A DNA stretch of 40,000 nucleotides from a bacterium (GCA_043772005.1 JAYVGP010000009.1:4328-44327), one strand, 5' to 3'; shown: positions 7,859-35,828, numbered from the stretch's first letter. The notes: a model not told the origin generated them from the sequence alone. Program-made: numbers and translations.

Positions 7859-8080
7859 CCGAATAAAAGTAAAAAATAAAAAAGAATTACATGAGACAAA
7901 ATATCTCACTGTGTCTCCACACAGCTTGACGCCAAGATAGTGATCAGACATACGAATACAAGTGAAAATGTACCAATGTCTGACACGCCCTGTGTACGGT
8001 CGTCACCATGTATGTACGACTATATCTGATGCTTGTGACAATTATGATGTCTGACAGAGTATGTATTAGATTGACAATCT

Positions 8081-8111
8081 GGTTATAAGCTTTATAAAGT
8101 TTCACCTTCGC
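8081..8111. repeat. AT-rich 31-32 bp box, copy 1 (GGTTATAAGCTTTATAAAGTTTCACCTTCGC)
   Basis: About 27 of 32 positions are identical to 9505-9536. It lies about 225 bp upstream of the S-layer-like gene start. Confidence 0.4.
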
Positions 8112-8446
8112 AGATATAAGCTGTCGCTATAAGGTTTATCTCCCTTCAACAAGTATACGCTGTTGTTCAAGTTCATAAGATTTTCTGTCTTCTTCTTCGT
8201 TGTACCGACTGCGTCAGCACTTGTACTCTTTAGGGCATATACTGCAGCAGCCTCGTTCTCTATATATTCATCATTAGGAGCGGAGCCAATAGAGAGCAGT
8301 AATCCAGTGAGTAGAGAGATTGAACATTAGAGCGAATCATAATAGACTAATATAAGAATATCACATAAAGCTGGATTACTTGACTAAAGGGTTACTTTCA
8401 TATCGTATACCTCATAATAACGAGTGGTTTGTGATAAATAAAAAAA

Positions 8447-8519
8447 TCAGAGTGGCGGGGCTCGAACCCACGACCTCAAGACCCCCAGCCTTGCGCGCTA
8501 CCAACTGCGCCACACCCTG
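8447..8519 (-). tRNA. tRNA-Pro (anticodon GGG)
   Basis: Hand-folded cloverleaf: acceptor CAGGGTG/CACTCTG with C1-G72 and A73, D arm GCGC-AGTTGGTA-GCGC, anticodon arm CAAGG-CTGGGGG-TCTTG, T arm GTGGG-TTCGAGC-CCCGC. CCA is not encoded. Confidence 0.9.
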
Positions 8520-8686
8520 ATTTATGTTTGCACTATAATAATATGTGTATCAAATTCAAACTGATCAATTAATTATCACAATCAAACACGTAGCAATACA
8601 TCCCTATGTCAATTAAATACGATCGAGTAAGAACCTTAAATAACCTTAATACTCAAATGAGTAGTAGCTCTGCATCCCATACGTCC

Positions 8687-9502
8687 CTATAACTTACGAC
8701 CCAGTCAAATAGTATCACATCCGTACCGCTCATCTCTATATTCGTCTACAATTACTTCTCAGTCACGAATATCGGTACCGACGGTACGTACGAGGATGCG
8801 ATGTTTGGGATAGAGTGTCTGGATCACAGCAACATAGTCTATGGCTGACTGCTGTGACTGCTCCATCACGATCACACTCGAACCACCATGGGTAGCGATC
8901 TCACGGAAGTAGTCAGATAGATACCAATAACTCCAATCAGAAATAAGAACATACTGGCTCTTCTGCTCTTCAGGATCAAGTCAGCCTACAGCTTCAATCA
9001 TACTTGCTGGGAATAAAGTTATGGATTGTCACATCTCACCCAGATACCACAGACCATCACGCTGCGCCATCTCCAACTGTGATGGAAGATAGCGATGTGT
9101 GATTCTGATATAAGTGGGTTGCTGTGTAGTACTCATAATATGATCCAAATCTGACAAAGATATAGGCTCATACACTCTCCAACCATATCATGTCATGAGA
9201 GTAATATCATCAAACTCAGGAGCAAACTTATGACCTATGCTAGCTACTCATACACGCAGATTGACGATTGTGATCTGAGTCAGGTTGCTCACATCATATA
9301 GGTCAAAAAATTGAGCTGCTGTGAGACGAGAGAGAATAATAAGCGTAGGCTGATCTACAGCTGAATCAAACTGTTTCAATGGTACACAATTAGGAAAGAG
9401 GTGTCAGACATCAGCATAGATAATACTATAACTCTGAGACTCGATCAGCTGATCTACAAAGTCTCAAGATTGAATATAGTGGAGGAGATTTACTTCGTTC
9501 AT
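8687..9502 (-). CDS. Divergent transketolase C-terminal-subunit-like protein (271 aa)
   Basis: No ORF of 60 aa or more in the standard-code track. With TGA=Gly there is one frame from ATG 9502-9500 to TAG 8689-8687. The pattern ...IIYADVG...PTLIILSRL...ITIVNLRVGVASIGH...DDITLMTGYGWRVYEPISLSDLDHIM...PTYIRITHRYLP follows the Pyr/C-terminal transketolase layout, but the catalytic-type motifs are degraded. Confidence 0.4.
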
Positions 9503-9504
9503 AA

Positions 9505-9536
9505 GGTTATAAAGTTTATAAAGTTTGCACCCTCGC
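9505..9536. repeat. AT-rich 32 bp box, copy 2 (GGTTATAAAGTTTATAAAGTTTGCACCCTCGC)
   Basis: Near-identical to 8081-8111. It sits directly upstream of the ATG at 9502 of the minus-strand transketolase-like gene. Confidence 0.4.
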
Positions 9537-9592
9537 GGGCATACCGCTTCTCAACAGATTCATTACTATTCTGCTGTTTTTATAAGTAAGAT

Positions 9593-11401
9593 CTAGTATT
9601 TCTGATTTTGTAAAAATTGATTGAACTTATCACACATCACATCAAATCACTCAGTGCTGGATGCGATCGTCTCTTCACCATGTACAAGTGTGATCGTAGC
9701 ATCGAGGTTTATAGTATTACTGATGGACTGATGTGCAAGAGCAGTAGTAATTCTCTCACGAGCGGTATCGAGGACCTCATCAATCGTCTTGTTGATACTA
9801 TGCAGATATGCCTCTGGAGACAATGGTTTACCTGTGGCTTGGAGTACGAGATCATCCATGGGCAATGAAGACCCAAACTTCCAAAAACGCTCCATTCGAG
9901 GTCAGACTTGTGGATTATCTAGAATGTATCCATCACGCTCAAAGAAGAACTCCCTATACTGATATACTGCCAAATCAGCCATGCCATACCCATGATAGCT
10001 ACATGCGCTCTCCCAGTTGAACGGATGAACTGCAAGCAATGGTCGTGGCAATGGCGTACTATGTGAAAAATAGTTGAGGCTGACTGTATTGGCAATATCA
10101 AGTACTTTGTCTGTGGTGAGGTCAGTGGATGTATAAATCTGTCTTTCAAACTGTACCATCGCAGCAATCGACATCATGCGACGACCTGCCAGTGGGTGAA
10201 GTTTACGAACTCTTGCCTCAAACTGCTCTCGTGGGAAATAGTCACCATCAAAATTCTGAGCATATAGTGTCTTGTACTCAATACTACTCATTACACTATC
10301 CATAAACATACTCTGTGTCTCTGCCCGAGCAGTAGAAGCTGGTGGGTATTCAGTATTGAGAATTACATCTTGCTGATCCATATGTGCAAAATGAGCTGCA
10401 TGTCCTCACTCATGAAATAGTGTATGTCACATATCAAATCCATCTCCTATCACATCAGGTCTCGAACAACAGGTAAACCCAATCTGGACGGACTGTCTGA
10501 ATCCATCGATATAGTGAGTAGGTACTGGCATATGACAGAAACCATTGTTGTATTTACCATCTCTTTCCATGAGATCAAGTTGCATCGTCGCACCATGATA
10601 GTTAACACCAAGTCTCGTCATGCATAGACCCCAATTCATGAGCTGATCCTGTAGGCGGAAATATGGATCTTCTTGCTTGGTAAAGTCTCATGAGAGGTAA
10701 TATCACATATTCCATGGCTCACGTAATCCTGGCTGATCCTTTTCCATTTCATACAGATACTGTCTTGAGCTTTCTGCTTGTTCATACAAATCATCAAAGA
10801 TTTTCCAGATTACCTCACAATCCATGCGCTCCTCAATCTGAGTCTTGTAATCATAGAAGTGCTTGTATCATAATGCTTGAGCATACTGGTTTCTGAGTGT
10901 AACAAGCTGGACATAGGGAGCGAGATCATCAAGAGGATACTGACAGATACCATGATAGTAGGCTTTTCTCAGGTTTTCGTCAGATTCTGTGACCATCTTA
11001 GCATACATTGATTTCTCTGACATAGAGACAAACTCTCCCGTAGTTGGATCAATATATCACTGGATACGGTTGGATCTGGATGTGTCGATACTCTTCTCCA
11101 ATGTGATGATTTGTGTTTTGAGATCTTGGAGTTCGTCTGGTGTAGAGTTGATACGGAAAAAATACTCCCAATGCTGTAATCTCTGGATCAACTCAGGATC
11201 TGACTCAATCACGAGTTGTACTTGCACCTGAGCGTAATATTCTGCTGATGATTTGAACCCATCGAGCGTCGTCTTAGTGGAAACGAATGGCTCATCGTAG
11301 GTTTTATCACCCATATAACTAAGCCAAAATGCTTCCTCATAAGGGATATGACTATCAAGGTAGGTTTGATTAAGATGGTTGAGGAGGTTGAGAGAAGACA
11401 T
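9593..11401 (-). CDS. pepF: M3-family oligoendopeptidase (PepF-like), 602 aa
   Basis: Track fragments 11057..11401, 10427..10639, 9902..10381 and 9647..9895 are all in one frame and joined by TGA. Zinc motif TLFHEGGHAAH, with the first G of GG as TGA at 10406-10408. TAG stop at 9595-9593. Confidence 0.8.
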
Positions 11402-11492
11402 AACACAAATAGTATATAATATTTAAAGAAGCTAGTCACCATGGCACTTGCTCAGAATCTCAGATGCAATCTACAAAAGATTTATGATAGTA

Positions 11493-11876
11493 TTATTCGT
11501 TCTCCCTTTCAGTGTTCCTCTTCTGTCTTGCTTTGGTCTGAGATGTGGTCAAGATCTGTACAATAAAGCTACTTGCAACCAAAAATAATGGAAGTCAGAC
11601 AAGAGCATAGAACATTGCTATGATTTTACCTCATACTGTGTGTGGACTAATATCCCCATATCCAAGCGAGGTAATACTGATCACACTAAAATATAATGAA
11701 TCAAAGTAACTACGACTCTCAAGAATACTAAAATAATATGATCCAAATCACACAATAATAATCACAAGTAATAATTCAATCTCCAATTTCTCTGCGAGAG
11801 TAAAAGTATGACTAAAAAAGTGTCTGAGGGGTTTGTGATATCGGCTTACTGGTTGGTTTTTCGTCAACTGTTTCAT
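11493..11876 (-). CDS. Minimal two-TM potassium channel (about 95-127 aa depending on the start)
   Basis: Selectivity filter ITSLGYGDISP, flanked by TM1 (LLLVIIIVGFGSYYFSIL) and TM2 (KIIAMFYALVGLPLFLVASSFIV). TAA stop at 11495-11493. The first in-frame ATG (11876-11874) lies inside the 3' end of the upstream helicase gene. Later TTG/GTG starts are possible. Confidence 0.65.
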
Positions 11877-13596
11877 CGGACTGAGACTGAGATGCTAAAA
11901 CTGGTGATGGCACTATACCATCAGAATATCTACTTGCGAGAGTAATAAGTTCTCCGATATTTTCCATACGCTCTTCTGCCTGAGGCTTGCCTTCATCATG
12001 GATCAGGAAGTCTTCATATTTGATATCTTTGACAATTTTGGCGAGGAGATCAGCAGGTGACAGCTGATCTACTACCTGAAAGCAATATGACATGAGTTGT
12101 GTAAACTGCTTGATAGGGGTGATAGTACGTGAGGTGAGTCAGATACTCGACCAATATTGATCAATATCGGTGATGATGTCGTGCAGTGATAGTCCATTTT
12201 TCTGACCATATTCCTCAAGTTTAGTGATTGTATCAGGTCCGATACTACGCTTGGGGACGTTGATAATACGCTTGAGGGCAACGGTATCACGAGGGTTATA
12301 GATATAACGCAGGTAGCTGATCATATCTTTGACCTCTCTACGCTCCAAGAAACGCAATCACCCAAAGATCTTATATGGCACTCACTCCGCAATCAATACT
12401 TGCTCAAAAGCATTGGACTGAGCATTTTTACGATAGAGAATTGCGAAGTCTGACCAGTTCATGGTTTGCTTACCTTTGATCTCGGAAAACAGATTCACGA
12501 CAGTCTTGGCTTCTGCCATCTCGTTATCGTTGGTGATATGGATGATCTTCTCTGTCCCATCGCGATGAGCAACAATATCTTTGGAGTATTGTTTGGTATT
12601 GTTTTTGATGATGTGTGAGCCTGCATGGACGATATGAGGTTTGGAGCGGTAGTTGGTTTGGAGCTTATAGATGACAATGTCTGGTCGCATTGATTTGACG
12701 TTGAGAAAGTTTTCCATCATAGCGCCACGCCAACGATAGATACTCTGAAAGTCATCACCAATAAATGTGATATTGCCTTTGTGTGTATCGCAGTCTGCAG
12801 CAAGCAGCTTCATAAGCTCAAACTGAATCCAGTTGGTATCTTGCGCCTCATCGACTAAAATCTGGGGGAAACGGCGCTGTCGCTTGAGTGTAATCTCAGG
12901 ATTGTCACGCAAGATGAGATAAGGAATTAAGAGGAGATCATCAAAGTCACACATATTTGCCTTATGTAACTCTTGTTCATAACGATCATAGACCATTGCT
13001 TCTCGCTCTTCCTGCTGTGAGTTAACGAGACGAAGTGCGCGCTGAGCAACAACTCACTTATTCTTGTAGCGAGAGATCGCTCATTGGGCATCTTGATATT
13101 TGAGACGCTCTTCATATTTGAGCTCTTTGATGATATTTTTGATCACTGACTGACACTCTCCTGTATCATAGACTCCGAAATCTTTGGTCAATCCATGTCC
13201 AAATGCCTCAATCTCAATCTTGAGAAAACGCAGAAATGTGGAGTGGAAGGTTCAGACCCATGGGAACGTAATTGGAGCTGAAGAGACTGAGAATGCTTCT
13301 CACGCATCCTCTTGACTCTTTTTAGCTTCTTTTTCTTTTTCAGCTTGTAAGTCCTTGGAGATTTTGATCAACCTTTCCTTCATCTCGTTGGCTGCCTTGT
13401 TGGTAAAGGTCACTGCAAGAATACCGGAAGGATCAAACCCACAGCCATGAACTAAATAGGCTATCTTATACGTCAGAACACGGGTTTTACCAGATCATGC
13501 TCATGCTAAAATCAACGAGCTTGTGTCATAATGCACAGCAGCGAGATATTGTTCTTCATTGAGCTGAGATTTGATGTATATTTGGATTGGAGTCAT
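11812..13596 (-). CDS. pcrA: UvrD/PcrA-family helicase, C-terminally short (594 aa; motifs V/VI region absent)
   Basis: ATG 13596-13594. Walker A LILAGAGSGKTRVL with TGA at 13501-13503 and 13495-13497. Also present: [28 protein letters not shown]. Track fragments 12382..12996, 12139..12357 and 11812..12093 are in the same frame. It ends with a low-complexity tail ([26 protein letters not shown]) and TAG at 11814-11812. Confidence 0.8.
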
Positions 13597-13643
13597 AAAA
13601 CCCTTATAGTGATTGTCTTGGATGGTTCAATCTCAAGTCATGA

Positions 13644-14495
13644 CTATTGTCTGATGCATTTGGAAAACCTCTCATCTTCGGGACACTGAGCCGCACGAGC
13701 ATTGATATGATATTGTTGTTGCAATTCGTCTAATGTGAGATTCAGTAGATTTTGGATCAATCACAGTTCATATGCCAACTCATTACTATATGATGGCAGG
13801 ATAAGCTTCCACGAAAATGGGACACGATCCTCACGAAGTTTGTTGATATGAGATCGGATAGAACTGGTGCAGTTGGGATAGATGGTATTGTAGAATTCTG
13901 GTGTCTGACTCAACTCCTGAGCTCTGGTCACCATATCAGTAAATAGTTGTCTCATCTTGTCTGGTGTGGTCTGGATCGGATACATGTATACTTGATCTTT
14001 GCGATGATTGGCGCGTAGAGCGATGACGTCTTGCTCACTCGCTATGACATACATGAGCTCATATTGCCCAGCCAGTCACTTGAGAGGATCATAATGCTCC
14101 CCTACTTCTTTGCGAGTCTCGATCGAGATCGATACATATTCTCAACTAAATCAAAAGCTTAAGAACGTATGAGCTGGACCACGATAATCACTGAAAGGCT
14201 CGACGACGAATCGCAACTCATCCAAGGAAGTCAGATCAAATGTTTTATCATAATAAGTTACAATATAGTCCTCGGTTGTACGATAGCGAGTATTGCGGAT
14301 ATTGTGAATTGTAATGAGGTCACCCGAAAGCGTCGCAGTCGGCATCACAGCCACGTCAGGGTACCAGTTGCGATTCAGGCTGGGAGTCTGTAGTTGTGCA
14401 TAGATCGTGAGACCAACAAGCACAAGCATCAGAAGTCACAGTGCTCATCAGATTGCTCGAGCGAGTATTTTAGAAACGATTTTGATATATTTCAT
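13644..14495 (-). CDS. DUF4105-like (Lnb N-terminal domain) membrane-anchored protein, 283 aa
   Basis: ATG 14495-14493. Track fragments 14151..14429 and 13761..14054 join via TGA. N-terminal TM segment plus the NRNWYPDVAVMP...IHNIRN...FVVEPFS pattern typical of DUF4105. TAG stop at 13646-13644. Confidence 0.6.
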
Positions 14496-14544
14496 ATGCT
14501 GGTATAGTATATTTACTAACTAAAGCGAATTAAACTACGACGTG

Positions 14545-14590
14545 ATAGTTAGATACTACATAGTCAAACGCTATTAGTAATCAAAGTTTT
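14545..14590 (-). promoter_or_regulatory. Conserved 45-bp promoter-like box, copy B, facing the DUF4105-like gene
   Basis: The minus strand reads AAAACTTTGATTACTAATAGCGTTTGACTATGTAGTATCTAACTAT, a near-duplicate of 848-893. It ends about 50 bp upstream of the ATG at 14495. Confidence 0.4.
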
Positions 14591-14625
14591 ATTTTATTGC
14601 AAGTTAGCTCATTTAGCAAGGCATT

Positions 14626-14660
14626 ACTTTGATTGTATGAGAGTTTGACTATATTAGTGA
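14626..14660 (+). promoter_or_regulatory. Promoter-like box, copy C (degenerate), facing the MazG-like gene
   Basis: ACTTTGATTGTATGAGAGTTTGACTATATTAGTGA shares the TTGATT...TTTGACTAT(G/A)T core with copies A and B. It sits back-to-back with copy B in a divergent intergenic region. Confidence 0.35.
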
Positions 14661-14778
14661 ATTTGAGTTTGAAAACAAATACAAGTCTTGTTTTATGAGG
14701 AGAAACGATTATCTTGTAATTGTATAATAAAATAATATAAAAGAATATGTTCTTTTTTATTTTCTTTTGATTAATTCA

Positions 14779-15099
14779 ATGAATGTTAGTGAATTACTGT
14801 GAATTATCGATCAATTGCATGATCAATTTGCATTACAGTGAATTGATCCGGAAAAAGAACTACTCTACAGGCACCTCAAACTCACAGAAGAAGTAGGCGA
14901 GCTCAGTAACGACATCATGTTGTACCTATGACACCAGAGAAAAGAAAAGCTCGATTGATTTGAACTCGATAACCTTGGTCATGAGGTAGTAGATGTTGTT
15001 CTTGCTGCATTATTGGTGGGTAGAATGACCTGAGTAGATCTTGAGCAAGCATTTGATTATAAAACCAACAAGATTAAGACAAGATTTAATTTGAAATAG
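14779..15099 (+). CDS. MazG-like nucleotide pyrophosphohydrolase domain protein (106 aa)
   Basis: ATG 14779. Reads through four TGA codons. The pattern LKLTEEVGELSNDI...ELDNLGHEVVDVVLAALLVGRMTGVDLEQAFDYKTNKIKTRF matches the small MazG/NTP-PPase fold. TAG stop at 15097-15099. Confidence 0.6.
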
Positions 15100-15140
15100 A
15101 ATCACACTATAGACTTTATACCTTTACAAACCCCAATCTC

Positions 15141-16280
15141 ATGAACTACAATCAACTCGCTCTCGAAGCCCACAAACTACACAAATGAAAACTCGGAACT
15201 CATAGCATTCCGAAACTCGAAACCAGAGATGATCTTTCAACTTATTATAGCCCTGGTGTAGCTGCCCCATGTCTCGCTATCGAACAAAACCCCGAACTCG
15301 CCTATGACTATACCTGGAAATCTCGTACGATCGCAGTAGTCAGTGACGGCAGTGCTGTCTTATGACTGGGGAATCTGGGCTGACTGGCATCATTGCCCGT
15401 GATGGAGGGTAAATGTATTTTATTTAAAGAATTTGGATGAGTAGATGCAGTGCCAATTGTACTCAATACTCAAGATCCAGACGAAATCATCGAGACGGTG
15501 TTACGCATTAGTCCAACATTCTGAGGAATCAACTTGGAAGATATCAAAGCTCCAGAGTGTTTCTATATTGAGGAGGAATTGAAAAAAAGAGCATGAATCC
15601 CAATCTTCCACGATGATCAACATGGTACTGCAATCGTCGTACTCGCGGGTCTCATCAACGCCCTCAAAGTAAACAACAAGATAATGTCAGACATCAAAAT
15701 TGTGATGACTGGAGCTGGAGCTGCCGGTATTGCGATTGCGAAATTACTATGGAAAGCATGAGCGACCAACATTATTATGGTTGATACCAAATGAGCAATC
15801 CATCACGGCAGAACTGATCTCAATAAATATAAATCTGAGATTGCTGACTACAATCGTGACACTCTCAGTGGTTCGCTGTCTGAAATAATCATTGGGGCAG
15901 ATGTATTTATTGGAGTATCTGGACCCGGTACGCTGGATCAAGACATGGTCAGAACTATGAGTACAGATGCAATCGTCTTTGGTCTTGCTAACCCAATCCC
16001 TGAGATTATGCCTGAGGATGCCAAAGCAGCCTGAGCGCTCATTATTGCTACTGGTAGGTCAGATTACCCAAATCAAATCAATAATATATTGGCTTTCCCA
16101 TGACTATTTAAGGGAGTATTACAGGCTCGTATCCCACAGATCACTGACGACCATAAACTCGCAGCTGCATTTGCTCTTGCAAATTATGTCACAAACCCTA
16201 CCGTAGATATGATCGTACCCAACGCACTGGACAAAGCTGTAGCTGATATAGTAGCACAGGCAGTAATAGGCGTCAAATAA
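15141..16280 (+). CDS. NAD(P)-dependent malic enzyme, short form (379 aa)
   Basis: ATG 15141. Motifs: [85 protein letters not shown]. Many of the conserved glycines are TGA (e.g. 15363-15365, 15381-15383). TAA stop at 16278-16280. Confidence 0.9.
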
Positions 16281-16302
16281 GATTTATTCTCTTTCTTATC
16301 AT

Positions 16303-16770
16303 ATGAAAAACTTGATTGTATTCTTACTCTTGATCGTAGTGACAGTAACCATATACATCGCGATCAGTGATCGTGTCCAGCTTGAAGAAGATGTTCTCAG
16401 TAGTATCCAGTTTGGATCTATCACCCATCTGCCCAGACCTGCCCCTATACTCTCCTGAGTAGTACAAGCCATGACCTGATGACGAATAGTCTCTGGATTT
16501 GTAGCAAATGGTACTGAACCATTCTGGGCTGCGGACTTCTCTGGCACCACACTTCTCTGGCAAAGTCCGGATATGGGAAGTATCGTGGTCAGTGGATTTG
16601 TAGGACCTATTAGCTCATGATCTGCACTCATATGGACAGAAAGCGGCAGCAATACAATCATCAGTATTATGTCATGAGCATGTAACAATGGTATGTCAGA
16701 TATAGTGTTTAGCGGATCAATTGATCTAGTGTTTAGCGGACAAACTCGAGAAGGCTGTATTTCATACTAA
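16303..16770 (+). CDS. Membrane-anchored hypothetical protein (155 aa), possibly COG3650-like
   Basis: ATG 16303 with an N-terminal TM/signal segment (MKNLIVFLLLIVVTVTIYIAI). GTEPFWAADFSG and C..GMSD resemble the EPFW / C.D.MSG pattern of COG3650 proteins (from memory). Reads through several TGA codons. The 129-aa track ORF on the opposite strand is judged spurious. Confidence 0.45.
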
Positions 16771-16778
16771 AATATCTA

Positions 16779-16810
16779 TTGACATTTGTTTATAAATTGT
16801 TTATTATAAT
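16779..16810 (+). promoter_or_regulatory. Sigma70-type promoter for the gene at 16838
   Basis: TTGACA (16779-16784), 17-nt spacer, TATTAT (16802-16807), overlapping TATAAT at 16805-16810. About 30 nt upstream of the ATG. Confidence 0.5.
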
Positions 16811-16837
16811 TGCATAACTTTATCCTTATCTCCCATT

Positions 16838-17530: not shown

Positions 17531-17645
17531 ATACAAGGTATTATAAAAAGATCAAATTAATTATAAATTGCGAAAATATCAGCAATCTTTACTATCAGTA
17601 ACAGCTCAATCTTGTATTTAATGAGCTTTTATGTATTATGAGATT

Positions 17646-18647
17646 ATGAACATAACTATTTGACCAGACGAAGCCGACCAGAGATTTGATCGCTACCTAC
17701 GTAAATTATTTAAAAAATATCGTGAAATCTGACTCGGTGACATTTTTTCATGGATCAGAACTGGTCTTATCACGGTCAATGGTCGTAAAGCAAAGCAAGA
17801 CTATAGAATCAAACGCGGAGATGTGATTGAAGTATGAAATATTAAGGAGATTGAAAGTGCAACACATCAAGTATTTAGCACAAAGCTTGGTAGACAAACT
17901 ACGAAGCCCAAGATGAATGTTGCCAACCTCAAGAAACTCATTATCTATGAAGACGGTAACTGGATCTTCTGGAACAAGCCAGCAGGGGTCGTGATCCATC
18001 CAAGTACCAACCACTATAAGGATGCTTGTATGAATGATTACTTGGAGCAGTATCTATGATTTGAAGATGATGGAAATAGCGAGACATTTAAACCATCATT
18101 TTGCTATCGTTTGGACAAAGATACGTCCGGAGTTCTTATTGCAGCTAAGACATACGATGCGCTTAAGCACCTTAACGAAATGATCAGAACTCGTGATGAG
18201 GGTATCGAAAAATATTATCTTGCAGTGGTAGTGGGTAAACCAGCAGACCAAACCATCGACGCACCACTATTCAAATGATTTAGCGAGAAAATGTGAAAGG
18301 GTCAGACCTTTGTTAATTATGAAAAATGAGTAAAAGCGATTTCAATTATTGAAACACTCCAAACTGTGGATCATCGTGATTTAGGTGAAATATCTCTCAT
18401 CAAAGTTAGAATCCTAACTGGACGCATGCATCAAATTCGTGTGCACTGTACGCATATTGGTCATCCAGTGCTGTGAGATATTGCCTATGGTAGCAAACAA
18501 CATAACGAATTATTGGCCAAAAAGTATAGTATCACGAGACAACTTCTTCATTCGTATCAGTATGGATTCCGTAGTATGGATGATAGCTGGATTGAACGTA
18601 ATTGTCCCGCTCCACAAGAATTTGCATTTTTATGACTACATGTGTAA
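17646..18647 (+). CDS. rluD: RluA-family 23S rRNA pseudouridine synthase with N-terminal S4 domain (RluD-like), 333 aa
   Basis: S4-like N-terminus (RFDRYLRKLF...ITVNGRKAKQDYRIKRGDVIEV). Catalytic region FCYRLDKDTSGVLIAAKT and GRMHQIRVHCTHIGHPVLGDIAYG, with the G of LGD as TGA. An alternative in-frame ATG exists at 17631. TAA stop at 18645-18647. Confidence 0.85.
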
Positions 18648-18675
18648 TATAAGTTATTAGCCTTTTAGTAGAAAG

Positions 18676-19269: not shown

Positions 19270-19276
19270 TTTTATG

Positions 19277-19348: not shown

Positions 19349-19389
19349 AGTATGTGAGTATATAATGATTATGAGACTAGTTTCAATCA

Positions 19390-20853: not shown

Positions 20854-20876
20854 AATATTGGGGCTAACTGATTTCA

Positions 20877-23800
20877 TTATAGGAGGTTTTGTAGGGTTTC
20901 TCGTAGGGTAGATCGTCGAGATTGAGATTGTGATGCATCGTGTGAAAGCTGTGATATGAGCAATCATGATCCGATGTCTATTCATGTCGTTTGACTCAGT
21001 ATTGGATCAAGATAGATTGCTGGATAATGTTGCTGGATATATAGTTTCTCTTGATAATACTGGGCATTACGGTCCGATAAGGTTTGAATATATTCCTTAC
21101 TCGACTGATATAACTGTGTAATACGAGTAGCATATGCACGAGACTGTTCAAGTTTGGTATGAAGCAGATCGATATAATCTTGTTTACTATTGGTAATGCT
21201 ACGATATGTTTGGTATAATTCATTCGTCTTACTACGATAACGATCCCATATATCACTAATTTCTTGATACTGTTCTTGTTTCAGCACCTTATTGATAAGT
21301 TTTTGTTCTCTCAAATCAAGGTTCAATAGTTCTAATGCATCGTCACTATCCGATATTGTCACAATCTGACCTTCATCAGCATAAAGTTCGCGCATCTTGT
21401 TGGAAATCTCAATAGTCGTCAAATCAAGCATATCTGAACTATGATAACTGCCATAACATACTTGGTCGTATATGGTTTCTCAATCAGTCAATGCAACACA
21501 TCATCCGTCGTTGGGTAGTGGAAATGAATCATAGATCAACTGCGCTAAGTCCGATCATCAAGATCAGGTGATAACTCTATTAGCCTTATTATTAATCACT
21601 AACAATAAAACTGATCACGATTGCGCTTGTTCATCATCCCATATCAATGAGACCAACTCTCATCCATCAGTATCACGTCACGGCGGATCAGCAATAATAC
21701 GATCAATCATAACTGCTTGATGCTGTTGAAAACGATACAACGATAATGATGCATCAGTATTGCTCGACGATGCTGTTCCACTGGATGATTGCTGTTGAAT
21801 AGATGTATCGAACGAGCATTCTCAGCCAAGTTGATCTTGCGCGTTAACGGTGCATCACTGCTTTCTGATATTGGTAGCAAGCACATCATGCTTATCCTTT
21901 CGCTTACGATAGAGGTCCTCATAATAGGTCGAGGTAGATGATGGCGAAGTAGATGATGAACTACTACTTGATATCGATGGATAGCTGATAAATGAATGAG
22001 TCTGACACAGCTGCTGTCCATCCTTGCTAATCGTGAGCTGTAGTGGTGCAAGTATCGCTTGGGGCAGAGTGAAATATCATGGATTGCAGCTGTCGGAGCC
22101 GGTGAACGTAAGTCAAGATCGCTGACACTGGTAGCTACTAGAATTTTGTATTTCATCTCTATCCAGCGATGCAATGAGGTTGATCGAGTTGCCAAATCTC
22201 AATGGAGTTGTATGCTGCGCCACAATACCACATACATGCTGTTCTCCAGTTTGAATGATAGTTGTTGTGAGCGTATTGGTGATCGTTTGCTGATGTATTG
22301 CTCCATAAAACATATATTCATCTTCACAAACCATAGTAGCACCACTATATTGTTGATAGGTAACACGGTGGGATCATGGAGCAAATGACTGTCACAGCGA
22401 ACATGAATTATTGGTTGATATAGCTCAATCGACCAATCGGGAGCTTGATGAGCAAGTTGAGTCTACTAAACTTCCGGACACAGTAAATCATGCAGAAAAT
22501 GATCCTGTGATATATCACTCATTGACAGCACTAATACGACATCATCCGATTTGTGGGACTTGTATTGATTGATGACAAGATGTCAGAAGAGTGGTTGCTT
22601 GATTGGTAGTAAAGATTCTTGTGCCTCATGAGTATGAAGTGAATATACTTGCTTTATTGGCTTGTGTGGATGAATAAATGACTGAGTCAAGCACCAAGCC
22701 TGATCAATTGCTCATAATAAGAGATTCTCCGTCATCGGTGAGCGTCATATTGGGCACCAGTATGACATTGTCAGACAAGACTCCACTCATCGATTCCACA
22801 AGGTATCGTACCGATCCAGACTGAGCTGAAATATCAAAGATCTTACTGGTATCTGATGTTCCCAGCCCAGCAATAGTGAGGGATCATGAGTAGGGTGCAG
22901 TAAACGACAGTGATAGATGCTCACCCACACAGTCAGCAAATGGATATATTTGAGAAATCTGGATCGATCAGGTAAGTTGTGTTCAAGTTAAAATTATTCA
23001 GGTCATGACTATTCATGTAACAACAATACCTGTACTAGCAGCTCCCGTGATTATCATTCAAGTTACAACAGTTCATGTCGTTACTACTCCAGTAAAAATG
23101 GTACCAGTACTAATTGATCATGTTATCAACAATCAAGTCGAAATAGTTCATGTGTTTGCAGGAAATAACGTGAGTCACCGCACGAGTCATGGATTGCCAC
23201 GATGTCATGAAATGATATTTGTGTTGTGAGATATTGGCGTAACTTGCCAGAGTTGTTGAGAAAAATCATACTCTCGAGCAGCAGACTGGTTATCGGATCA
23301 TAGTACTTGTGATACAATCAGATCGAGAGAGTCAATCACGTCTCCACTATAGATCAGCTGTAATGAGCGAGCAGTAGTATCTGTCATAGATAATCACTGC
23401 CCAGATACAATATCAAATCACGATGACACTACCATCGCTAGCGTATCACCAATCACTACGCTCTCATTGGTTCATAAATTCAAAGTAGTTGTTAGTAATC
23501 AAGATGTTTTGACTCAAGAAATACTCACTGATCCTATAAAAGGATCTCACCGATTTGTTAGTTCAATATATTCATCAGTACCATCGATCCTGACTTCAGT
23601 GATGCTGAGCTGTGGCGATGGATTTGGTAGTACGAATGATGTCATCATAAGCATCAATGACGAAATATCTTCCTGTGGCTCATTTTCAACACTAGAATAA
23701 GCGATTTCTGGTGGATTTTGCTCCACTGCTCACTGTCAGACTGTGGGCTGGGACGAATCAGGGATCAATAATCCTCACGTACTATCTAACGGTCATGATC

Positions 23801-24164
23801 ACACAATACTACCTGATGAGTTAGACACAACATCTGTCGTACTTCATGATTCGACACCAGGAAAGATATTAGTATCAGATTGATCTTGCGCAATATTGCT
23901 ATCACTATCGACGATAGGTAAAAGCTCTGGCTGTCATGGTTTGTCTGACATAAGACTTAGAACTTCGACAGTATTGGACGCTTGCTCTGATTCAAAATCA
24001 TTATATACAAGCTCTTCTCAAGATCACGGGATCGAAATAGTGATGTCTTGTGCGACAGCCCGACTCAAACATGTCTGACATAGTATGACAACTATCGACA
24101 TTCGACTTAGACATGTCTGACATAGTATGACATAATACGACAGCAAACAATACTTGTCTGACAT
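20877..24164 (-). CDS. Giant surface-type protein with three lamin-tail-domain (LTD)-like segments, a (TGxxx)13 repeat and a Q/Y-rich coiled-coil C-terminus (about 1095 aa)
   Basis: One minus-strand frame has no TAA/TAG from 24236 down to TAA at 20879-20877. Track ORFs 22113..22334 and 20982..21431 are in this frame. LTD-like motifs: ITEVRIDGTDEYIELTNRG; IQISQIYPFADCVGEHLSLS...LTDDGESLIM; MIDRIIADPPGRDTDGGELVSLIW...LPNDGGCVALTDGETIYDQVCYG. The start is uncertain: ATG at 24164, 24101 or 23951. Confidence 0.65.
22965..23153 (-). repeat. 13 tandem 15-bp units encoding the pentapeptide repeat T-G-x-x-x inside the LTD gene
   Basis: Translated: TGTIS TGLLI TGSIS TGTIF TGVVT TGTVV TGMII TGAAS TGIVV TGIVM TGIIL TGTQL TGS. 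The Gly codons in order are TGA TGA TGA GGT GGA TGA TGA GGA GGT TGA TGA TGA TGA. Confidence 0.85.
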
Positions 24165-24294
24165 TTGTATAGTAAAAATAATATAAAAGATACAAGAATG
24201 CTTTATATAACTAATATCTGATAATCTTTTTGTGTCTTATTTTGTCTGACAAAGTATGACAGATTTGTCTATGTCTGTCATCAATACTATGACA
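24072..24294. repeat. Array of direct 19-bp repeats TGTCTGACAnAGTATGACA (plus degenerate copies)
   Basis: Exact TGTCTGACATAGTATGACA at 24072-24090 and 24114-24132. TGTCTGACAAAGTATGACA at 24243-24261. A half copy at 24155-24163. A variant TGTCTGTCATCAATACTATGACA at 24272-24294. The related TGTCTGACAGAGTATGTAT is at 8048-8066. Start-to-start spacings are 42, 41 and 88 bp. Confidence 0.8.
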
Positions 24295-24816
24295 GATTTT
24301 GACACTCTTGGACAAATCTAGCGAAAGTGCTGTCAAATTGCAAGATTATTTTGTCAAAGTCTGTCAAGAGGGATTTGACATGATACGACTGTAATATAAG
24401 TAATCATATATTATGTTGTACTATAAGTTAATAGCGCGACAAAAATACGACAATAAAACAACGAATTATAGCGACTTTACTCAATAGACACCATGACACG
24501 AATCATTCAGATCGGCTTATCATAGCCTGTCATGCTAACGTTTGGTTAGAGGATTTTTGTTTTTTACGCTTGTAGAGTTACTAAAATTTCGTATACCATC
24601 AACATATCAATAAATCCAAATAGTTTATTGATCTGTACAAACAAAAATCTGTTGTTAACATTCCGTTCTCTGTATATCTTAGAGCAGAATATCAACTCCC
24701 ACCCGGGTAGGTGTTATTCAATTACGCTCCGAAGATTGACTTTAAACTTACGAATCAATGACTTATATCAATTAGTGGTAATCATCACTACTTCATATAA
24801 ATCGCTGTTTCAGTGG

Positions 24817-24872
24817 TTGTGTCTCTCTTCGGGGCACAATCACTAAATCAGCATGTTTTCTTGCTGATTTTT
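24817..24872 (+). terminator. Two consecutive hairpins, the second an intrinsic-terminator-like stem plus T-run, inside the long non-coding region before pheT
   Basis: TTGTGTCTC-tcttc-GGGGCACAA (24817-24839), then AATCAGCA-tgttttct-TGCTGATT followed by TTT (24846-24872). Confidence 0.55.
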
Positions 24873-24959
24873 CGTTTATGAAAAACATGAGCTGAGATTG
24901 ATTTTCGATAGTGATTGTGTAGATTATATGCAATATTTAATCTTATTTTATCGTATCTA

Positions 24960-27419
24960 ATGAAATATCATCTCAACTGAATCAAACAATACATCTCACT
25001 CAAGGATAATCTCGAAAATCTGGTCAAACAGATGACGATGAAGATCTTTGAGGTTGAGGATGAAATTGTGGATAATATACTACCCGATCTACTTGTGATC
25101 TGATATGTCACAGCCGTAACTCAACATCCAAATGCGGATAAACTCAAAGTATGTCAGATCGACTGTGGTACTCATGGAAACTTCCAGATTTGTACTGGTG
25201 GAGAGAATATTGTCGTCGATAAATATGTGCCTGTAGCATTACCTGGATGCTATCTGCCAGCGATTGATCTTAAGATCGAGCCAAGACCGATGAGAGGCGA
25301 GGAATCCAACGGTATGGTCTGCTCCAAAGGTGAACTCGGTATCAATGAAGACGAGGACCAGCACTGGATATGGCTACTGGATGAGGATCTCCACGATCTA
25401 TCGGCTGACGATAAAGGAAAAGACATGAAGGATAAGTATCCATGGCTAGAAAATGTGCAATTTGAGGTTAAAAACATCGCAATTACCACCAGGCCTGACC
25501 TGACTGGGTATTGGGGAGTGGCTTGTGAGCTCAATGCGGTGTATGCTGACAGTGGATTGATACAGTTTAACCAAGTACCAACAGTGCTCAATGAACTACA
25601 GCATCTTAATATCAGCGAAGCACTACGTACTGCACCAAATGCTACCAGATGAGTACAAATCGATACTGACCTATGTGCGTGCTATAGTGTGGTGGAGTTT
25701 GATGGGATTACAGTCAAGCCTAGTGACCTCTATCAGAGGATGATGGTCTATGGTACTGGAGCAATCCCCAGAAGTAATTGGGTCGACCGGTCCAATAATT
25801 TTATGAATTTGACAGGGCAGCCAGTACACTGCTTTGATAGTAATACACTCGTAGGAGATATCATCGTGAGAATTGCCAATGATGGAGAACAATTTACTGA
25901 TCTGCTGTGAGGAGAACATGCGCTCCAAACATGAGATATTGTCATATGCGATCAGGAAAAGATCGTAGCCCTTGCAGGTGTGATCGGATGAATGAATACT
26001 GCAATCAGCGAAACAACCACCAAGGTAAGTGTGGAAGTAGCGCAATTTGACCCAACACAGGTACGTAAGACCGCAACAAGATTGTGATTGAGAACTGACG
26101 CAGCGGTCAGATTTGAAAAATATATCAACCCATACTGGACACAATACTGCACGATGATCGTGTCAGAACAGATTCGCAAGCAGGCGACGAGCCTGGGTAA
26201 AGCCAACTATGTTGGGATCACACATGTGACCAATATAATGCCAGCTCGCATGCCAGTCACCGTGTCGGTGGCCAAGGCTCAACAGTTTATCTGGGGTAAT
26301 GGGCAAGCGCATACAGGTGAACAGATGAAGAAATTGCTCGAACATCTATGATTCATCGTGAGCCTCGATAGTGATATGATGCTATGTACACCACCAATCT
26401 GGAGGTCACCGGTCGATATCACACATGTGCAAGATATCTATGAAGAGATTGGTAGGATTGTAGGATATGAAAATCTGGGCACTCAAACACTCAAGACAAG
26501 TGCTACACCGCAGCTCAACATCATCCCACAGGTTGTAAGGACAATCGAAGATACGATGGTGATGAAATATGGCTATGATCAGGTCGAAACATACCTCTGG
26601 ACCGAACAAAAATACCTCGAACTCCTCGGTCAATATGACCCAAGCTCCTATACACTACTCAATCCACTTAGTCCTGAGCAGACAATCATCAGACCGATGT
26701 TGTACCCAGGACTCGTACAATCTGTGGTCAAAAATCATAGAATGCATGATGAGGTCAAAGTATTTGAGACGGCGCATGTGGTAAATAGTAACGGAGTTGA
26801 AACTCATCATGTCTGTATCGTAAGCTATACCACAAGGGATAGCAACAGCGAATATCCGTGAGGATGAAAAAATCTCCTGCAAGATGCCATCATACAGCAC
26901 AAAACGATCCTGTCAGACATCGTCGGACAGTATGAGATATCCTCTACAGATAAGGCATATCTCCATCCTAAGAAACAAGGAGAGATTAAAATAAATAGTG
27001 AGATAGTCGGACTCCTAGGTCAAGTACATCCACTGGTGTGTGATGAGCTCGGTCTCAATATTGACTATCAACTCGTGGTCACTGAGGTAAATCTTACAGC
27101 ACTGATCGCACAAGGCTGGACATGAGTCAAGTCAGGCAAATCATATCTCACCAACCAACACCATATCATCACTCGTGATGTATCGTTTGGACTGACAGGT
27201 AATGCAACATACGAGCAGATCCTCAACATTGCTCAGTCTGCCAAGGGTATCGACAAGGTAGAGGTGTTTGATCTCTATCAGCCAAGTCCTGAACTGCGCA
27301 CGATGTGAGTAAGATTTACGATGATCTATGATGAGGCTCCAAGCACCGAATCTGTGACTAAGAAGGTAGAGTATATTGTCGGGCAGATTGCAAAGATTGA
27401 GGGAGTGAGTGTGAGGTAG
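24960..27419 (+). CDS. pheT: Phenylalanine--tRNA ligase beta subunit (819 aa)
   Basis: ATG 24960. N-terminal tRNA-binding (OB) domain: VIGYVTAVTQHPNADKLKVCQIDCG...IEPRPMRGEESNGMVCS. Track fragments 25227..25652, 25689..25910, 26088..26351 and 26358..26861 are collinear in one frame and joined by TGA. TAG stop at 27417-27419. No pheS is found upstream. Confidence 0.9.
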
Positions 27420-27445
27420 ATATTTAATTACACTAAATTAAAATA

Positions 27446-27988
27446 ATGAAACTAGAGCTAATACCACACATACTTAATATAATTGAAATATTCATCTGAT
27501 TCCTCTTAGCGAATTTTGTAAGTAAATATTTCCAATATTTCTTTGAAAACAAGGAAATCCAGAAAGAACACGACATCAAAATAGCAAAAGAGATTCTTAA
27601 TAAAATATCTGTTAAGTGATTTTGAGATCTAATTAAAGATACTACATTATCGAGTTTTCACCGCAGCCACTATGATGTAATGAGTTTTTATAAATACCTT
27701 TACGAAACTCATACATTTTATAATACTGACATTCAAAAATATTTTAATATATTTATTGTATCCTTACATCAATATCAATCACTCCTATATAAAAACTATC
27801 AGCCATTGGATCATGATCGTTCTGTTGTCAAGATAGTTGACGAGAATCAAATAGATCAGATACTAGATCAAGTGGAACCACTATCTACAATAGTAGAACA
27901 ACAGCAAAAAGACTTTTTGAATTTGATAAGAAAAAAGTTACCAAAAGCATCAATAGATACTTACGAAACACAAAATCATAACTACTAA
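27446..27988 (+). CDS. Hypothetical membrane-anchored protein (180 aa)
   Basis: ATG 27446. TM-like HILNIIEIFIGFLLANFVSKYF. Joins track ORF 27680..27988 through three TGA codons. Confidence 0.45.
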
Positions 27989-27990
27989 AA

Positions 27991-28531
27991 ATGCAAAAAA
28001 TTACTTTTATCACATGAAATCAACACAAGGCAGATTATCTTGCTCAATTTCTTGGCTATCCAGTAGACCACATCAAACTTGATCTGGATGAAGTTCAATC
28101 CACAGATCTTCGTGAGATTGTAGAACATAAAGTTAAACAAGCCTACAGTATAGTCAAAAAGCCCGTCATCGTGGAAGACGTATCATTAGAATTTGAAGAA
28201 TTAGGTTGATTACCAGGACCATTTATCAAATTTTTTTGTCGATAAAGTACCATTTCAAAACGTATGCAATATGATTTGATTAAATAGAAATGCTACAGCA
28301 AAATGTGTCTTTGGCTATTATGATGGCAAGGAATTACACCTATTTGAGTGAAAACTAGATGGAACTATTACTACACAACCATCAGGAGAAAATTGATATG
28401 GTCGAGATCAGATCTTTATACCACAGTGATACGATGTCACAAGAGCATCACTATCTCCAGAAGATGACCAAAAAACATACCTACAGATTAAACCATTTGC
28501 CCAGCTCAAAGACTTTCTTGAAAGAAGATAA
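27991..28531 (+). pseudogene. Ham1/RdgB-type non-canonical purine NTP pyrophosphatase (ITPase), interrupted by a +1 frameshift in a T7 run
   Basis: Frame 1 (27991-28245) reads MQKITFITGNQHKADYL...VIVEDVSLEFEELGGLPGPFIKFF and then stops. The family-typical continuation VDKVPFQNVCNMIGLNRNATAKCVFGYYDG...GENGYGRDQIFIPQGYDVTRASLSPEDDQKTYL runs in the next frame from 28238 to TAA at 28529-28531. The shift lies in TTTTTTT at 28231-28237. Confidence 0.7.
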
Positions 28532-28547
28532 GTAAGTAAGCATAAAA

Positions 28548-28576
28548 TTGACAAAGTAAAACCAAAGCCCTATAAT
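28548..28576 (+). promoter_or_regulatory. Perfect sigma70 consensus promoter predicting a leaderless or near-leaderless mRNA
   Basis: TTGACA (28548-28553), exactly 17 nt, TATAAT (28571-28576), then CAGACT and the ATG at 28583. Confidence 0.65.
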
Positions 28577-28582
28577 CAGACT

Positions 28583-29578
28583 ATGAATATTAGAAAAAAA
28601 CCACAGCAACAGCTCGAAGATGATACAAAAACAATAAGTAGATTTGGTAGTTTGTTTTTTTTATCAAAATACACTATAGAGGATATAACTCTAGCACTGT
28701 GTAATCCCAAGGAGAATGAAGATTTTCATCGTAACTTTTTGTTGTGGTTTAGAACATATTTCAAGTCATATTCTATCTTTAAACACAATCAAAAAACCCA
28801 TACAAAAGAAGATACTACAATATCGAATCCAACCACAACCATATTTGTCTCAAGAAAGAAAACAGAATTTTTTGGAGAATATATCAACAGAGCCCATATT
28901 TGGTCTGATCATTTTAAAGTTAATAATGAACCCGTAGAATACTGAGTAGTAGACTCAATACTAATATGAACTAGAGACTGAGACGGACTAACTCCTGAAG
29001 ATCCGCAACCCATCTATTGCCAATGAGAACAAACCAAAATCTATACTATTAATACCAAATGATACATCTGAGAAATAAAATCAAAACCCCGATTATTAAA
29101 CTCCATTAATCAATATATCAACCATAACATACTTGAATATATGTATGAGTGGTTTAACTCAATTAGATGCCATAACTTTGGATTTGGTATAGGTCTATGA
29201 AATTACTCTCACATCATACCATATGATAATCAGAAACTCAGAATAGGAGACACTATAGCATTTATTGCTCCTAGTGACTGAGATTATCACTTTCTTGTTT
29301 ATTTGTGAGATAATATAGCTATCTGAAAACTTGCTCAACTAGGGATTCATTTTTCTAGTCTTTGACAATCTTTTACCAAAAATAAAATGCCAAACTCTTG
29401 GATTATCAAACCAGATACTAGATATAATAAGCTAATGAAAAAAAATGACATGGAATGACTAAACAGTCTTTTTATCACTAATTTTAATTTGTGGATTGAG
29501 TTTCTCAATCAGCTTAAAAATCATACTAAAACTACTCCACAAAATAATTCTGATACACAACTCCCTGCACAGGACTAG
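28583..29578 (+). CDS. Hypothetical protein (331 aa); possible papain/NlpC-P60-like C-terminal half (very tentative)
   Basis: Track ORF 28583..28945 continues through TGA to TAG at 29576-29578. RIGDTIAFIAPSDGDYHFLVYLGDNIAIGKL, preceded by a Cys (SIRCHNFGF), loosely recalls the NlpC/P60 Cys...His order. Its 3' end overlaps the miaA 3' end by about 47 bp (convergent). Confidence 0.5.
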
Positions 29579-30524
29579 TCTGACTATCTCTCAGATACCT
29601 ACGAAACCATGTGCGTTGCTTCTTGGCGAGGCGGCGATCGCCGAGCTGCATGAGTCTGATACACTCTTCACGGTCATACTCTCAGGCCAGATATCACATG
29701 ACGATCGGGTAGAGGATCGGCTTCTTGGTTGTCAGATGCTCTGCGTATCACAGTGAGATGAGGTGCTGGATCTCATCGATAAATCCATGGTCCAGCATCT
29801 GTTCGATCCTACGGTTGATAAGCTCATCACCACTCACTACATCTCTCCGCAGTCCTATCATGAGGAGTGGACGAATAGGTGGATTGGAAGATGTAATCTC
29901 AGCTTTGGTCTTGCCAGTGATGTGGATCATCTCGAGGGCTCTGATGATAAATCTGGTAGAGCTCGGATGATGACGCGCAGCTTCTGCTGGGTCGAGCTGG
30001 GTGAGTAGGGTGTGGCAGTATCACGGTGATAGCAATTCCTCAGACTCGAGGGTGGCTCTATACTCATAGTCAGGCGGGACATCAGGGAGTCAGAAGTTAT
30101 GGTATATCATATCAATATATAATCCGGTACCTCAGACTATGACTGGGATCTTGCCACGTGTCTGAATCTGTCTGACATACTCATGAGCATCAGTCTGCCG
30201 CTGTCCTGCAGTATAAATCTCATCTGGATCCACTATATCAATCAGGTGATGAGGCAACTGAGCACGGATCTCAGGACTGACCTTGTCAGTACCAATATCC
30301 ATATAACGATATATCTGACGTGAATCAGCGCTGATCACCTCAATCGGGAAACGGTCACTCAGCTGCAATGATAGTGCTGTCTTGCCAGTAGCGGTCTGTC
30401 ATCGGATCGCAATCATCCCGTCGGGATAATGATCGAGAAAATGCTTCACATCTGCTGTGATCTTCTCAATATCATAAGAGCGATACGAAGTGAGTCCCTG
30501 TGGGAGTATCTGATTGGCTTGCAT
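29532..30524 (-). CDS. miaA: tRNA dimethylallyltransferase (330 aa)
   Basis: ATG 30524-30522. P-loop IAIRGQTATGKTALS with the first G as TGA at 30399-30401. Also ISADSRQIYRYMDIGTDK, HHLIDIVDP and PVIVGGTGLY. Track ORFs 30132..30368 and 29748..29930 are in the same frame. TAG stop at 29534-29532. Confidence 0.85.
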
Positions 30525-35771: not shown

Positions 35772-35780
35772 AATAACCTG

Positions 35781-35806: not shown

Positions 35807-35828
35807 ATCAGTATATAAAAATAATCTC

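Follow-up and report, generated by a model that had tools for sequence, protein, structure and literature searches.

In the type II centromere parC of plasmid R1, ParR iterons flank the par promoter. For chromosomal parS sites a location deep inside genes is usual; for operators it is unusual. For ParB of Pseudomonas aeruginosa, four origin-proximal parS sites and hundreds of half-site heptamers genome-wide have been reported (PMC5961200). The operator of FadR has the consensus tGGTCWGACCa (PMC2532739), and HIP1 (GCGATCGC) of cyanobacteria is a lineage-specific palindrome, 15-300-fold enriched genome-wide (PMC5861425, PMC4390886). Here we analyze the 9-bp palindrome TGTCWGACA (W is A or T) in a 40,000-nucleotide stretch of DNA (GCA_043772005.1, JAYVGP010000009.1:4328-44327; the window), derived from an Absconditabacterales-like bacterium in which TGA encodes glycine (genetic code 25). 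We find that the word represents a previously undescribed family of selected cis-elements in an uncultured, recoded lineage. A preliminary description of the window, made from the sequence alone, did not recognize it as a known motif, and this stands: a literature search for TGTCWGACA returned primers and the FadR consensus only, the latter being the closest published look-alike.

A locally enriched palindrome with a widespread core

Exact TGTCWGACA is found 12 times in the window, with starts from 7977 to 30169 (Table 1). The expectation is 0.78 ± 0.85 copies from 100 dinucleotide shuffles (maximum 4) and 0.45 from an order-3 Markov model, and the word is the top-enriched 9-mer of the window. 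Its inner core, GTCWGAC, is present 27 times, compared with ∼4 expected. All 12 copies had been located correctly in the preliminary description, although the start it gave for the whole feature (7978) is one off, the first copy starting at 7977. The 8-mer-only copy that it placed near 22000 (AGTCTGACA) is present at 21999, and there are 12 one-mismatch relatives in the window.

We extended the window to 101,051 bp (window coordinates -28394 to 72656), assembled by exact protein look-ups and matching the window letter for letter in all shared parts. These 101 kb, which represent ∼10% of the genome, contain 15 copies of TGTCWGACA (1.06 expected, order-3 Markov), 12 of which lie within 7977-30177, a span of 22.2 kb that we call the hot zone. 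The remaining three (at -14833, 49837, and 57528) are spread over the other 79 kb, where ∼1 is expected; within genes outside the hot zone the count is 2 compared with 0.46 expected. The GTCWGAC core behaves differently. It is found 58 times (9.9 expected, order-3 Markov), is raised everywhere at a density of ∼0.57 per kb, including the two outermost 20-kb flanks (15 and 9 copies, 2.3 expected in each), and ranks first among the 64 W-centered 7-mer palindromes, a set whose median observed/expected ratio is 1.0. The outer T and A accompany 12 of 21 cores inside the hot zone and 3 of 37 outside it (Fisher p = 8e-5), the latter figure being what base composition predicts. With the half-site array described below taken as a single locus, one 22-kb span contains 7 of the 10 loci (scan statistic p = 0.03).

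There are thus two layers, not distinguished in the preliminary description: a local 9-mer and a genome-wide 7-mer core. Outside the hot zone the 9-mer is a chance subset of the core. The preliminary description had proposed a genome-wide excess over the Markov expectation as a check on the motif; the core shows such an excess, and the 9-mer outside the hot zone does not. In these 101 kb the data do not support the idea of TGTCWGACA itself as a global motif. Its claim that the flanks often extend to ATGTCWGACAT holds for 3 of the 15 copies only, the flanks being merely A/T-biased. The weaker, genome-wide excess of GTCWGAC could stem from sites to which the protein that recognizes the 9-mer binds with low affinity, or it could have a different origin. 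This layer may also contain sub-classes: AGTCWGACT is found 9 times in the 101 kb (1.09 expected), and some copies of the GGTCWGACC type are embedded in longer palindromes, such as AAAGGGTCAGACCTTT (18296-18311).

Table 1. Copies of TGTCWGACA in the window, the half-site array, and its AT-rich core
Feature	Position	Context	Further observations
TGTCTGACA copy	7977..7985	∼120 bp ahead of a minus-strand gene that starts at 7858 and encodes a 1121-residue secreted protein	kept in the 94%-identical strain L127
TGTCTGACA copy	8048..8056	∼190 bp upstream of the gene for the 1121-residue secreted protein	
TGTCAGACA copy	9402..9410	within an unannotated gene for 271 residues, 8687-9502(-), read Val-Gly(TGA)-His	
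TGTCAGACA copy	15685..15693	within the malic enzyme gene, 15141-16280(+), read Met-Ser-Asp-Ile	
TGTCAGACA copy	22769..22777	within the gene for a large Pfam-less protein, 20877-∼23900(-)	another GACA 10 bp off
TGTCTGACA copy	23942..23950	in the array	
TGTCTGACA copy	24072..24080	in the array	unit 1 of the 42-bp duplication
TGTCTGACA copy	24114..24122	in the array	unit 2 of the 42-bp duplication
TGTCTGACA copy	24155..24163	in the array	flanks the AT-rich core on one side
TGTCTGACA copy	24243..24251	in the array	flanks the AT-rich core on the other side
TGTCAGACA copy	26911..26919	within pheT, read Leu-Ser-Asp-Ile	orthologous position in L001 and L135
TGTCTGACA copy	30169..30177	within miaA (29532-∼30500, minus strand)	orthologous position in L135
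Array of GACA/TGTC half-sites	23925-24535 (611 bp)	divergent intergenic region of ∼1 kb, with the gene for a large secreted protein (-) on one side and pheT (+) on the other	36 half-sites, including five full palindromes
AT-rich core	24164..24242 (79 bp)	between two palindromes of the array	contains TGTATAGT and the 16-mer AAAATAATATAAAAGA

Selection on the symmetric word

Two relatives allow the sites to be compared position by position, L001 (from GCA_043720715.1; PheT 81% identical) and L135 (a Logan contig from SRR26831616; PheT 79% and MiaA 80% identical). L001 retains all 7 of the window sites that can be aligned and L135 retains 4 of 5, or 11 of 12 together; for random 9-mers of the same alignments, the retained fractions are 0.24 and 0.16, respectively. 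TGTCWGACA is also the top-enriched 9-mer of L135, with 7 copies in 14 kb that lie in miaA, in pheT, and in the intergenic array, as in the window. In L135 the pheT site has T in place of the central A, a synonymous exchange (TCA to TCT), and an adjacent Leu becomes Val. In the miaA site the same A to T exchange turns Arg (AGA) into Gly (TGA), and the palindrome is retained. Because the center base flips in both genes while the motif is kept, the constraint acts on a symmetric DNA word and not on the protein. The site in the large Pfam-less protein is part of 17 nucleotides identical in L001 amid a stretch of ∼60-70% identity. We conclude that purifying selection acts on the DNA sequence of the 9-mers and leaves their W center free. 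Conservation of 7-mer-only sites is not clear (2 of 4 kept), and no copy of the motif is found in single contigs of two more distant Absconditabacterales, L002 (14.8 kb) and L003 (5.4 kb), whose PheT proteins are 36-39% identical.

Five of the 10 loci in the 101 kb lie deep inside genes. The malic enzyme and pheT copies translate as x-Ser-Asp-Ile, the miaA copy as Val-Arg-Gln, and the copy in gene 8687-9502 as Val-Gly-His, with the glycine encoded by TGA. When codons are permuted within the genes of the 101 kb, 0.65 9-mers are expected and 6 are seen; for GTCWGAC, 7.1 ± 2.6 cores are expected and 42 are seen. The core is found in all three frames and on both strands, its center base on the coding strand is T or A in a ratio of 18:18, and neither a coding-strand bias nor a left/right orientation bias is seen. 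Codon usage or a common peptide motif can therefore be rejected as the source of the copies, in agreement with the preliminary description. Its assignment of host genes is right for malic enzyme, pheT, and miaA but not for "LTD", as the copies at 9402 and 22769 fall in proteins without a Pfam match. TGA-codon context is likewise rejected, TGA being in frame in just some copies. An apparent left/right bias of the center base in the outer flanks had suggested a polar motif like Chi or KOPS. It vanished in the full set, where, as noted, the center is balanced; the center also flips between relatives, and a polar motif is rejected.

A core that is 4-6-fold over-represented by Markov model, after codon shuffling, and in the outer flanks alike, that occupies all frames and both strands, and that outranks every other palindrome of its class resembles an iterated palindrome of the HIP1 type. 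Such a word would be generated or maintained by an orphan methyltransferase with biased repair, or selected for nucleoid structure, in either case with no classical site-specific binder; for HIP1, too, conservation within genes and a link to methyltransferases have been described (PMC5861425, PMC4390886). This explanation leaves the confinement of the T..A-flanked 9-mer to 22 kb unaccounted for, as well as the phasing of half-sites at 10 bp in the array, where half-sites are not full methylation targets, and the uncertain conservation of the 7-mer-only sites does not favor it. For the 9-mer we regard it as very improbable; a HIP1-like process probably applies to the background core layer only.

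The half-site array and its chromosomal setting

Five of the palindromes belong to an array of GACA/TGTC half-sites in the divergent intergenic region upstream of pheT (Table 1). One 200-bp stretch of the array contains 16 half-sites (1.5 expected), and same-orientation pairs spaced by exactly 10 bp number 11 (1.0 expected, P<5e-5), with 9 such pairs in L001 and 6 in L135. The typical unit reads TGTC-T-GACA-N6-GACA-N6-GACA, and a 42-bp unit (CGACTCAAACATGTCTGACATAGTATGACAACTATCGACATT), equivalent to four helical turns, is tandemly duplicated. An alignment reveals that the architecture of the array is common to the three genomes. A single duplicated segment as the source of the motif, which the preliminary description had named as grounds for refuting it, is rejected: the 42-bp tandem duplication is the only one, it accounts for just 2 of the 5 array copies, and the others are independent.

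The AT-rich core between two of the palindromes is conserved across the three genomes in sequence, beyond mere composition. Its 16-mer AAAATAATATAAAAGA (24175-24190) recurs exactly at 14729-14744, in another divergent intergenic region, which gives the core a promoter-like appearance. Directly next to the copy at 24155-24163 is a TG-TATAGT element similar to an extended -10 box. Sigma-70-type hexamer pairs are no more common in the array than in shuffled sequence. No match to the array was returned by BLAST against plasmids and phages, and when metagenome and viral collections were scanned for pairs of motifs separated by 12-42 bp, chance hits and unrelated tandem repeats were obtained, with no further loci of the clade.

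The symmetry of the word and its free center, its conservation regardless of coding context, the half-sites at 10 bp, and the local confinement argue for a dimeric DNA-binding protein able to oligomerize along one face of the helix. On this basis our preferred reading, held tentatively and at somewhat less than even probability, is that the TGTCWGACA cluster is a centromere-like or origin-domain organizer site of a clade-specific dimeric DNA-binding protein. TGTCWGACA would be its high-affinity, 2-fold symmetric site, with one subunit of the dimer on each GACA and half-site centers 5 bp apart. In the array, extra subunits would probably join cooperatively on GACA half-sites one helical turn apart, and a large nucleoprotein complex would assemble around the promoter-like AT-rich core. 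Solitary palindromes, several of them within genes, would widen the bound region to ∼22 kb, probably near the origin, and any control of the promoter at the array would be a side effect. The system would be analogous to parS/ParB clusters or to the iterons of plasmid parC; the sites deep inside genes, the probable origin context described below, and the precedent of P. aeruginosa ParB (PMC5961200) also speak for this reading.

The same array could instead be a set of ordinary transcription factor operators, bound by a GntR/FadR-like winged-helix dimer or a ribbon-helix-helix protein and controlling the divergent array promoters and the secreted-protein promoter at 7858, with the in-gene copies acting as auxiliary or looping sites. 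TGTCWGACA has the GT-N-AC form of GntR-type operators and differs from the FadR consensus tGGTCWGACCa by one substitution per half-site (PMC2532739). The array flanks a conserved AT-rich core that shares 16 nucleotides with another divergent promoter region and has a palindrome next to the -10-like element, and two further copies are found 120 and 190 bp upstream of the gene for the 1121-residue secreted protein (4493-7858(-), no Pfam match). This gene contains no in-frame TGA, which is unique in the window, where every other gene has 2-51. Either expression of the gene is very high, as for an S-layer-like protein, or the gene was acquired recently; a highly expressed surface protein is the probable case. 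Half of the loci, however, lie deep in genes, where they are conserved even though an amino-acid change results in one case. Among the genes called in the 101 kb, none encodes a GntR, ribbon-helix-helix, or other regulator. Pairs of promoter-like hexamers are not enriched in the array, and confinement to 22 kb would be odd for a regulon. We consider the operator explanation unlikely, albeit a serious contender.

A role as DNA uptake or self-recognition sequence in natural transformation was among the suggestions of the preliminary description. A core density of ∼0.6 per kb, independent of frame, resembles that of DNA uptake sequences and uptake signal sequences, and type IV pilus genes (for a prepilin peptidase and a pilin-like protein) are located nearby. 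Known uptake sequences, however, are asymmetric 9-12-mers that are evenly spread (∼1 per kb) and often paired in terminators, whereas our core has just 7 bp and the 9-mer is arrayed in a promoter region and not at gene ends. Given that the 9-mer is a palindrome of local distribution that forms an array with half-sites in helical phase, we judge an uptake function extremely improbable.

Several features of the non-coding DNA around the motif were observed alongside these results. Adjoining the array, a non-coding block (24515-24900) is ∼90% identical in L001 and L135, exceeding the conservation of the flanking genes. It has no plausible ORF (open reading frame) but contains several conserved hairpins with a few compensatory changes, and it may be a new structured RNA. 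No small ORF is found in 24280-24990, and no Rfam family matches the intergenic region at E<=1. A 22-nt repeat, GGTTATAA(G/A)(C/G)TTTATAAAGTTT, is located upstream of two minus-strand genes (8081-8102 and 9505-9526), and words such as CTTTATAAA are over-represented in the window; together with AAAATAATATAAAAGA, these are probably promoter or leader elements of the lineage. ATGTCTGACA, present at 24164 and 7951, reads Met-Ser-Asp in translation, and for this reason gene callers mis-start genes on it: ORF finders and the public gene call place the start of a 1095-residue protein inside the array (MSDKYC...), and the secreted protein gene has an analogous false upstream start (MSDHYL...).

On the scale of the 101 kb, transcription is leftward between about -20 and 14.5 kb and mostly rightward past 34 kb, with genes of both orientations in the interval 14.5-34 kb. 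The cumulative GC skew, calculated with ribosomal RNA (rRNA) genes masked, has a broad minimum (11-57 kb): it falls to 11.6 kb, wanders to 56.6 kb, and then rises steeply, with its exact minimum at 34,976. rnpA is located at 36961-37563. The rRNA genes are ordered 23S-5S-16S on one strand (L126 13643-18449, corresponding to window positions of about -1.7 to -6.5 kb) and are transcribed away from the hot zone; the 16S gene is thus downstream of 5S and not upstream of 23S. The hot zone is probably origin-proximal. At 8-10 kb from the array we find a gene for a 730-residue AAA+ protein (31782-33974(-)), which is most similar, though at sub-threshold scores throughout, to the DnaA ATPase domain and to Orc1/Cdc6. 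It has four relatives only among 1.84 billion representative proteins, is encoded by all three motif-bearing genomes, and adjoins gltX in every case seen; in one relative it is split into two genes. A Bac_DnaA_C domain was not detected in this protein, and for its C-terminal domain the AlphaFold model is unusable (pLDDT 44) and no PDB sequence matches.

This protein raises the question of a non-canonical initiator: the array would be oriC, and the AAA+ protein would replace DnaA and read GACA-type boxes instead of TTATCCACA. An AT-rich segment flanked on either side by short boxes that are in phase and share one orientation is the classic layout of an origin, canonical DnaA boxes (TTATCCACA) are not enriched (16 compared with 14 expected), and the hot zone coincides with a broad GC-skew minimum and the switch in gene strand. 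The sub-threshold matches of the AAA+ protein to initiators, and its co-occurrence with the motif in the same narrow clade, point in the same direction. DnaA-type boxes, on the other hand, are asymmetric and bound by monomers, whereas TGTCWGACA is a strict palindrome with a freely flipping center. The AT-rich core is conserved in sequence and promoter-like rather than an unwinding element, the exact skew minimum lies away from the array, the promoter region of the AAA+ gene contains no copy of the motif, and the failure to detect a DnaA C-terminal domain also counts against the scheme. We consider this initiator scheme improbable, although still a live contender. Decidedly improbable in our view is a broader variant, in which the orphan AAA+ protein together with the palindrome/half-site system has replaced canonical DnaA and its boxes, and perhaps ParB/parS too, in a narrow Absconditabacterales lineage; the array would then be a non-canonical origin or centromere, with the in-gene palindromes as part of its control.

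The assignment of genetic code 25 is based on several observations. Long ORFs add up to 11 kb in the window under table 11 and to 55 kb when TGA is translated; glycine is encoded by TGA more often than by any other codon (283 of 827), including the invariant Walker A glycine of the AAA+ protein (GCK-TGA-CGKT); and the tRNA-Trp gene has the anticodon CCA. One pheT relative is labeled Candidatus Absconditabacterales. To our knowledge, almost nothing is known about replication, segregation, and regulation in recoded bacteria of the candidate phyla radiation, and the clade is uncultured. Genes of the window include alaS, uvrD, pheT, miaA, gltX, and rnpA as well as those for an M3 peptidase, malic enzyme, and a pseudouridine synthase, and several window proteins have no Pfam match at all. 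An L,D-transpeptidase gene was not found in the window. The Ham1/ITPase gene is split into two ORFs in different frames (27991-28245 and 28271-28531), both of which match the same Pfam family; this could represent a pseudogene, a frameshift, or a sequencing error. In a 99.7%-identical strain (L130, GCA_043730705.1, compared with window positions 34116-37000), a DUF4238 gene takes the place of the MFS transporter gene beside gltX, a small strain-level gene replacement next to the AAA+ locus.

Comparison with described systems

Several observations weigh against the reading of the cluster as a centromere-like or origin-domain organizer site. Neither ParA, ParB, nor any other candidate binder is found among the called genes of the 101 kb by Pfam hits, and scans of the unannotated neighboring proteins with PHROGs and NCBIfam return no DNA-binding candidates. 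The near-universal parS sequence TGTTNCACGTGNAACA has one match with 2 mismatches in 62 kb and otherwise none at <=2 mismatches, with no overlap between parS-like sequence and the motif. At 9 bp the palindrome is too short for a typical ParB site, no extended palindrome is present in the flanks of the 15 copies, and phased half-site arrays are foreign to chromosomal parS. The promoter-like core of the array and the two copies upstream of the surface-protein gene also fit plain transcriptional control. The proximity to an origin is deduced from gene orientation and a noisy skew over 101 kb, and the local confinement is only moderately significant when the array is a single locus (p = 0.03).

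Of the roles listed in the preliminary description, a nucleoid or replication-protein site fits the data best, a "global" motif is not supported by them, and an uptake sequence is unlikely. Its proposal of a symmetric, dimer-type element is borne out insofar as TGTCWGACA is a real, selected DNA word that codon usage does not explain. For a clade that has not been cultured, the cis-element offers evidence of selection at the DNA level, a precise architecture of palindromes and half-sites at 10 bp, and a chromosomal address by a likely origin. Its 42-bp unit is a concrete probe with which to fish out the binding protein, and the motif may serve as a marker of the origin-proximal domain in related metagenome-assembled genomes. 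Similar words are also seen elsewhere: an unrelated contig (L058) carries TAGGCCTA at 9 sites in 13.6 kb (∼0.3 expected), and two viral contigs of ∼13.7 kb each (L138 and L240) contain TGTCWGACA repeats within their terminal inverted repeats.

The DnaA-box arrays of oriC share with our locus phased short boxes that flank an AT-rich segment, a GC-skew minimum, which is broad here, and, nearby, a gene for an initiator-like AAA+ protein. They differ in that the box is palindromic here and asymmetric there, with no similarity to TTATCCACA, and in the promoter-like character of the AT-rich core. HIP1 is likewise a lineage-specific palindrome that occurs in all reading frames and is conserved inside genes. 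It is, however, of even length, whereas in our lineage the genome-wide enrichment (∼5-fold) is limited to the 7-mer core, the full 9-mer being a local feature. The operator of FadR, a GntR-family protein, is an odd palindrome with 4-bp half-sites around a central W and has the identical GTCWGAC core, to which a winged-helix dimer binds. The flanking bases are T/A in our motif and G/C in the FadR operator, most of our sites lie outside promoters, and a GntR-family gene was not found in the 101 kb.

Centromeres of the parC/ParR type have beside them genes for an actin-like or Walker ATPase and a small ribbon-helix-helix adaptor; here neither parM nor parR adjoins the array, whose neighbors are the large secreted protein gene on one side and the non-coding block, then pheT, on the other. 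The 4-bp half-sites are moreover mixed with palindromes, and solitary sites are spread over 22 kb. The layout itself is of the parC type, with two blocks of short repeats, phased at about one helical turn (11 pairs at 10 bp), on both sides of a promoter-like core, and a cooperative nucleoprotein complex that could also repress the promoter would be common to both. Compared with the parS clusters of ParB, TGTCWGACA is an unrelated and shorter word (9 bp compared with the 16 bp of TGTTNCACGTGNAACA), its half-sites are phased, and no ParA or ParB gene is located nearby. Common to the two are several palindromes within tens of kilobases near an origin, a probable one in our case, many of them in genes and conserved between relatives, and a shorter related word that is found genome-wide.

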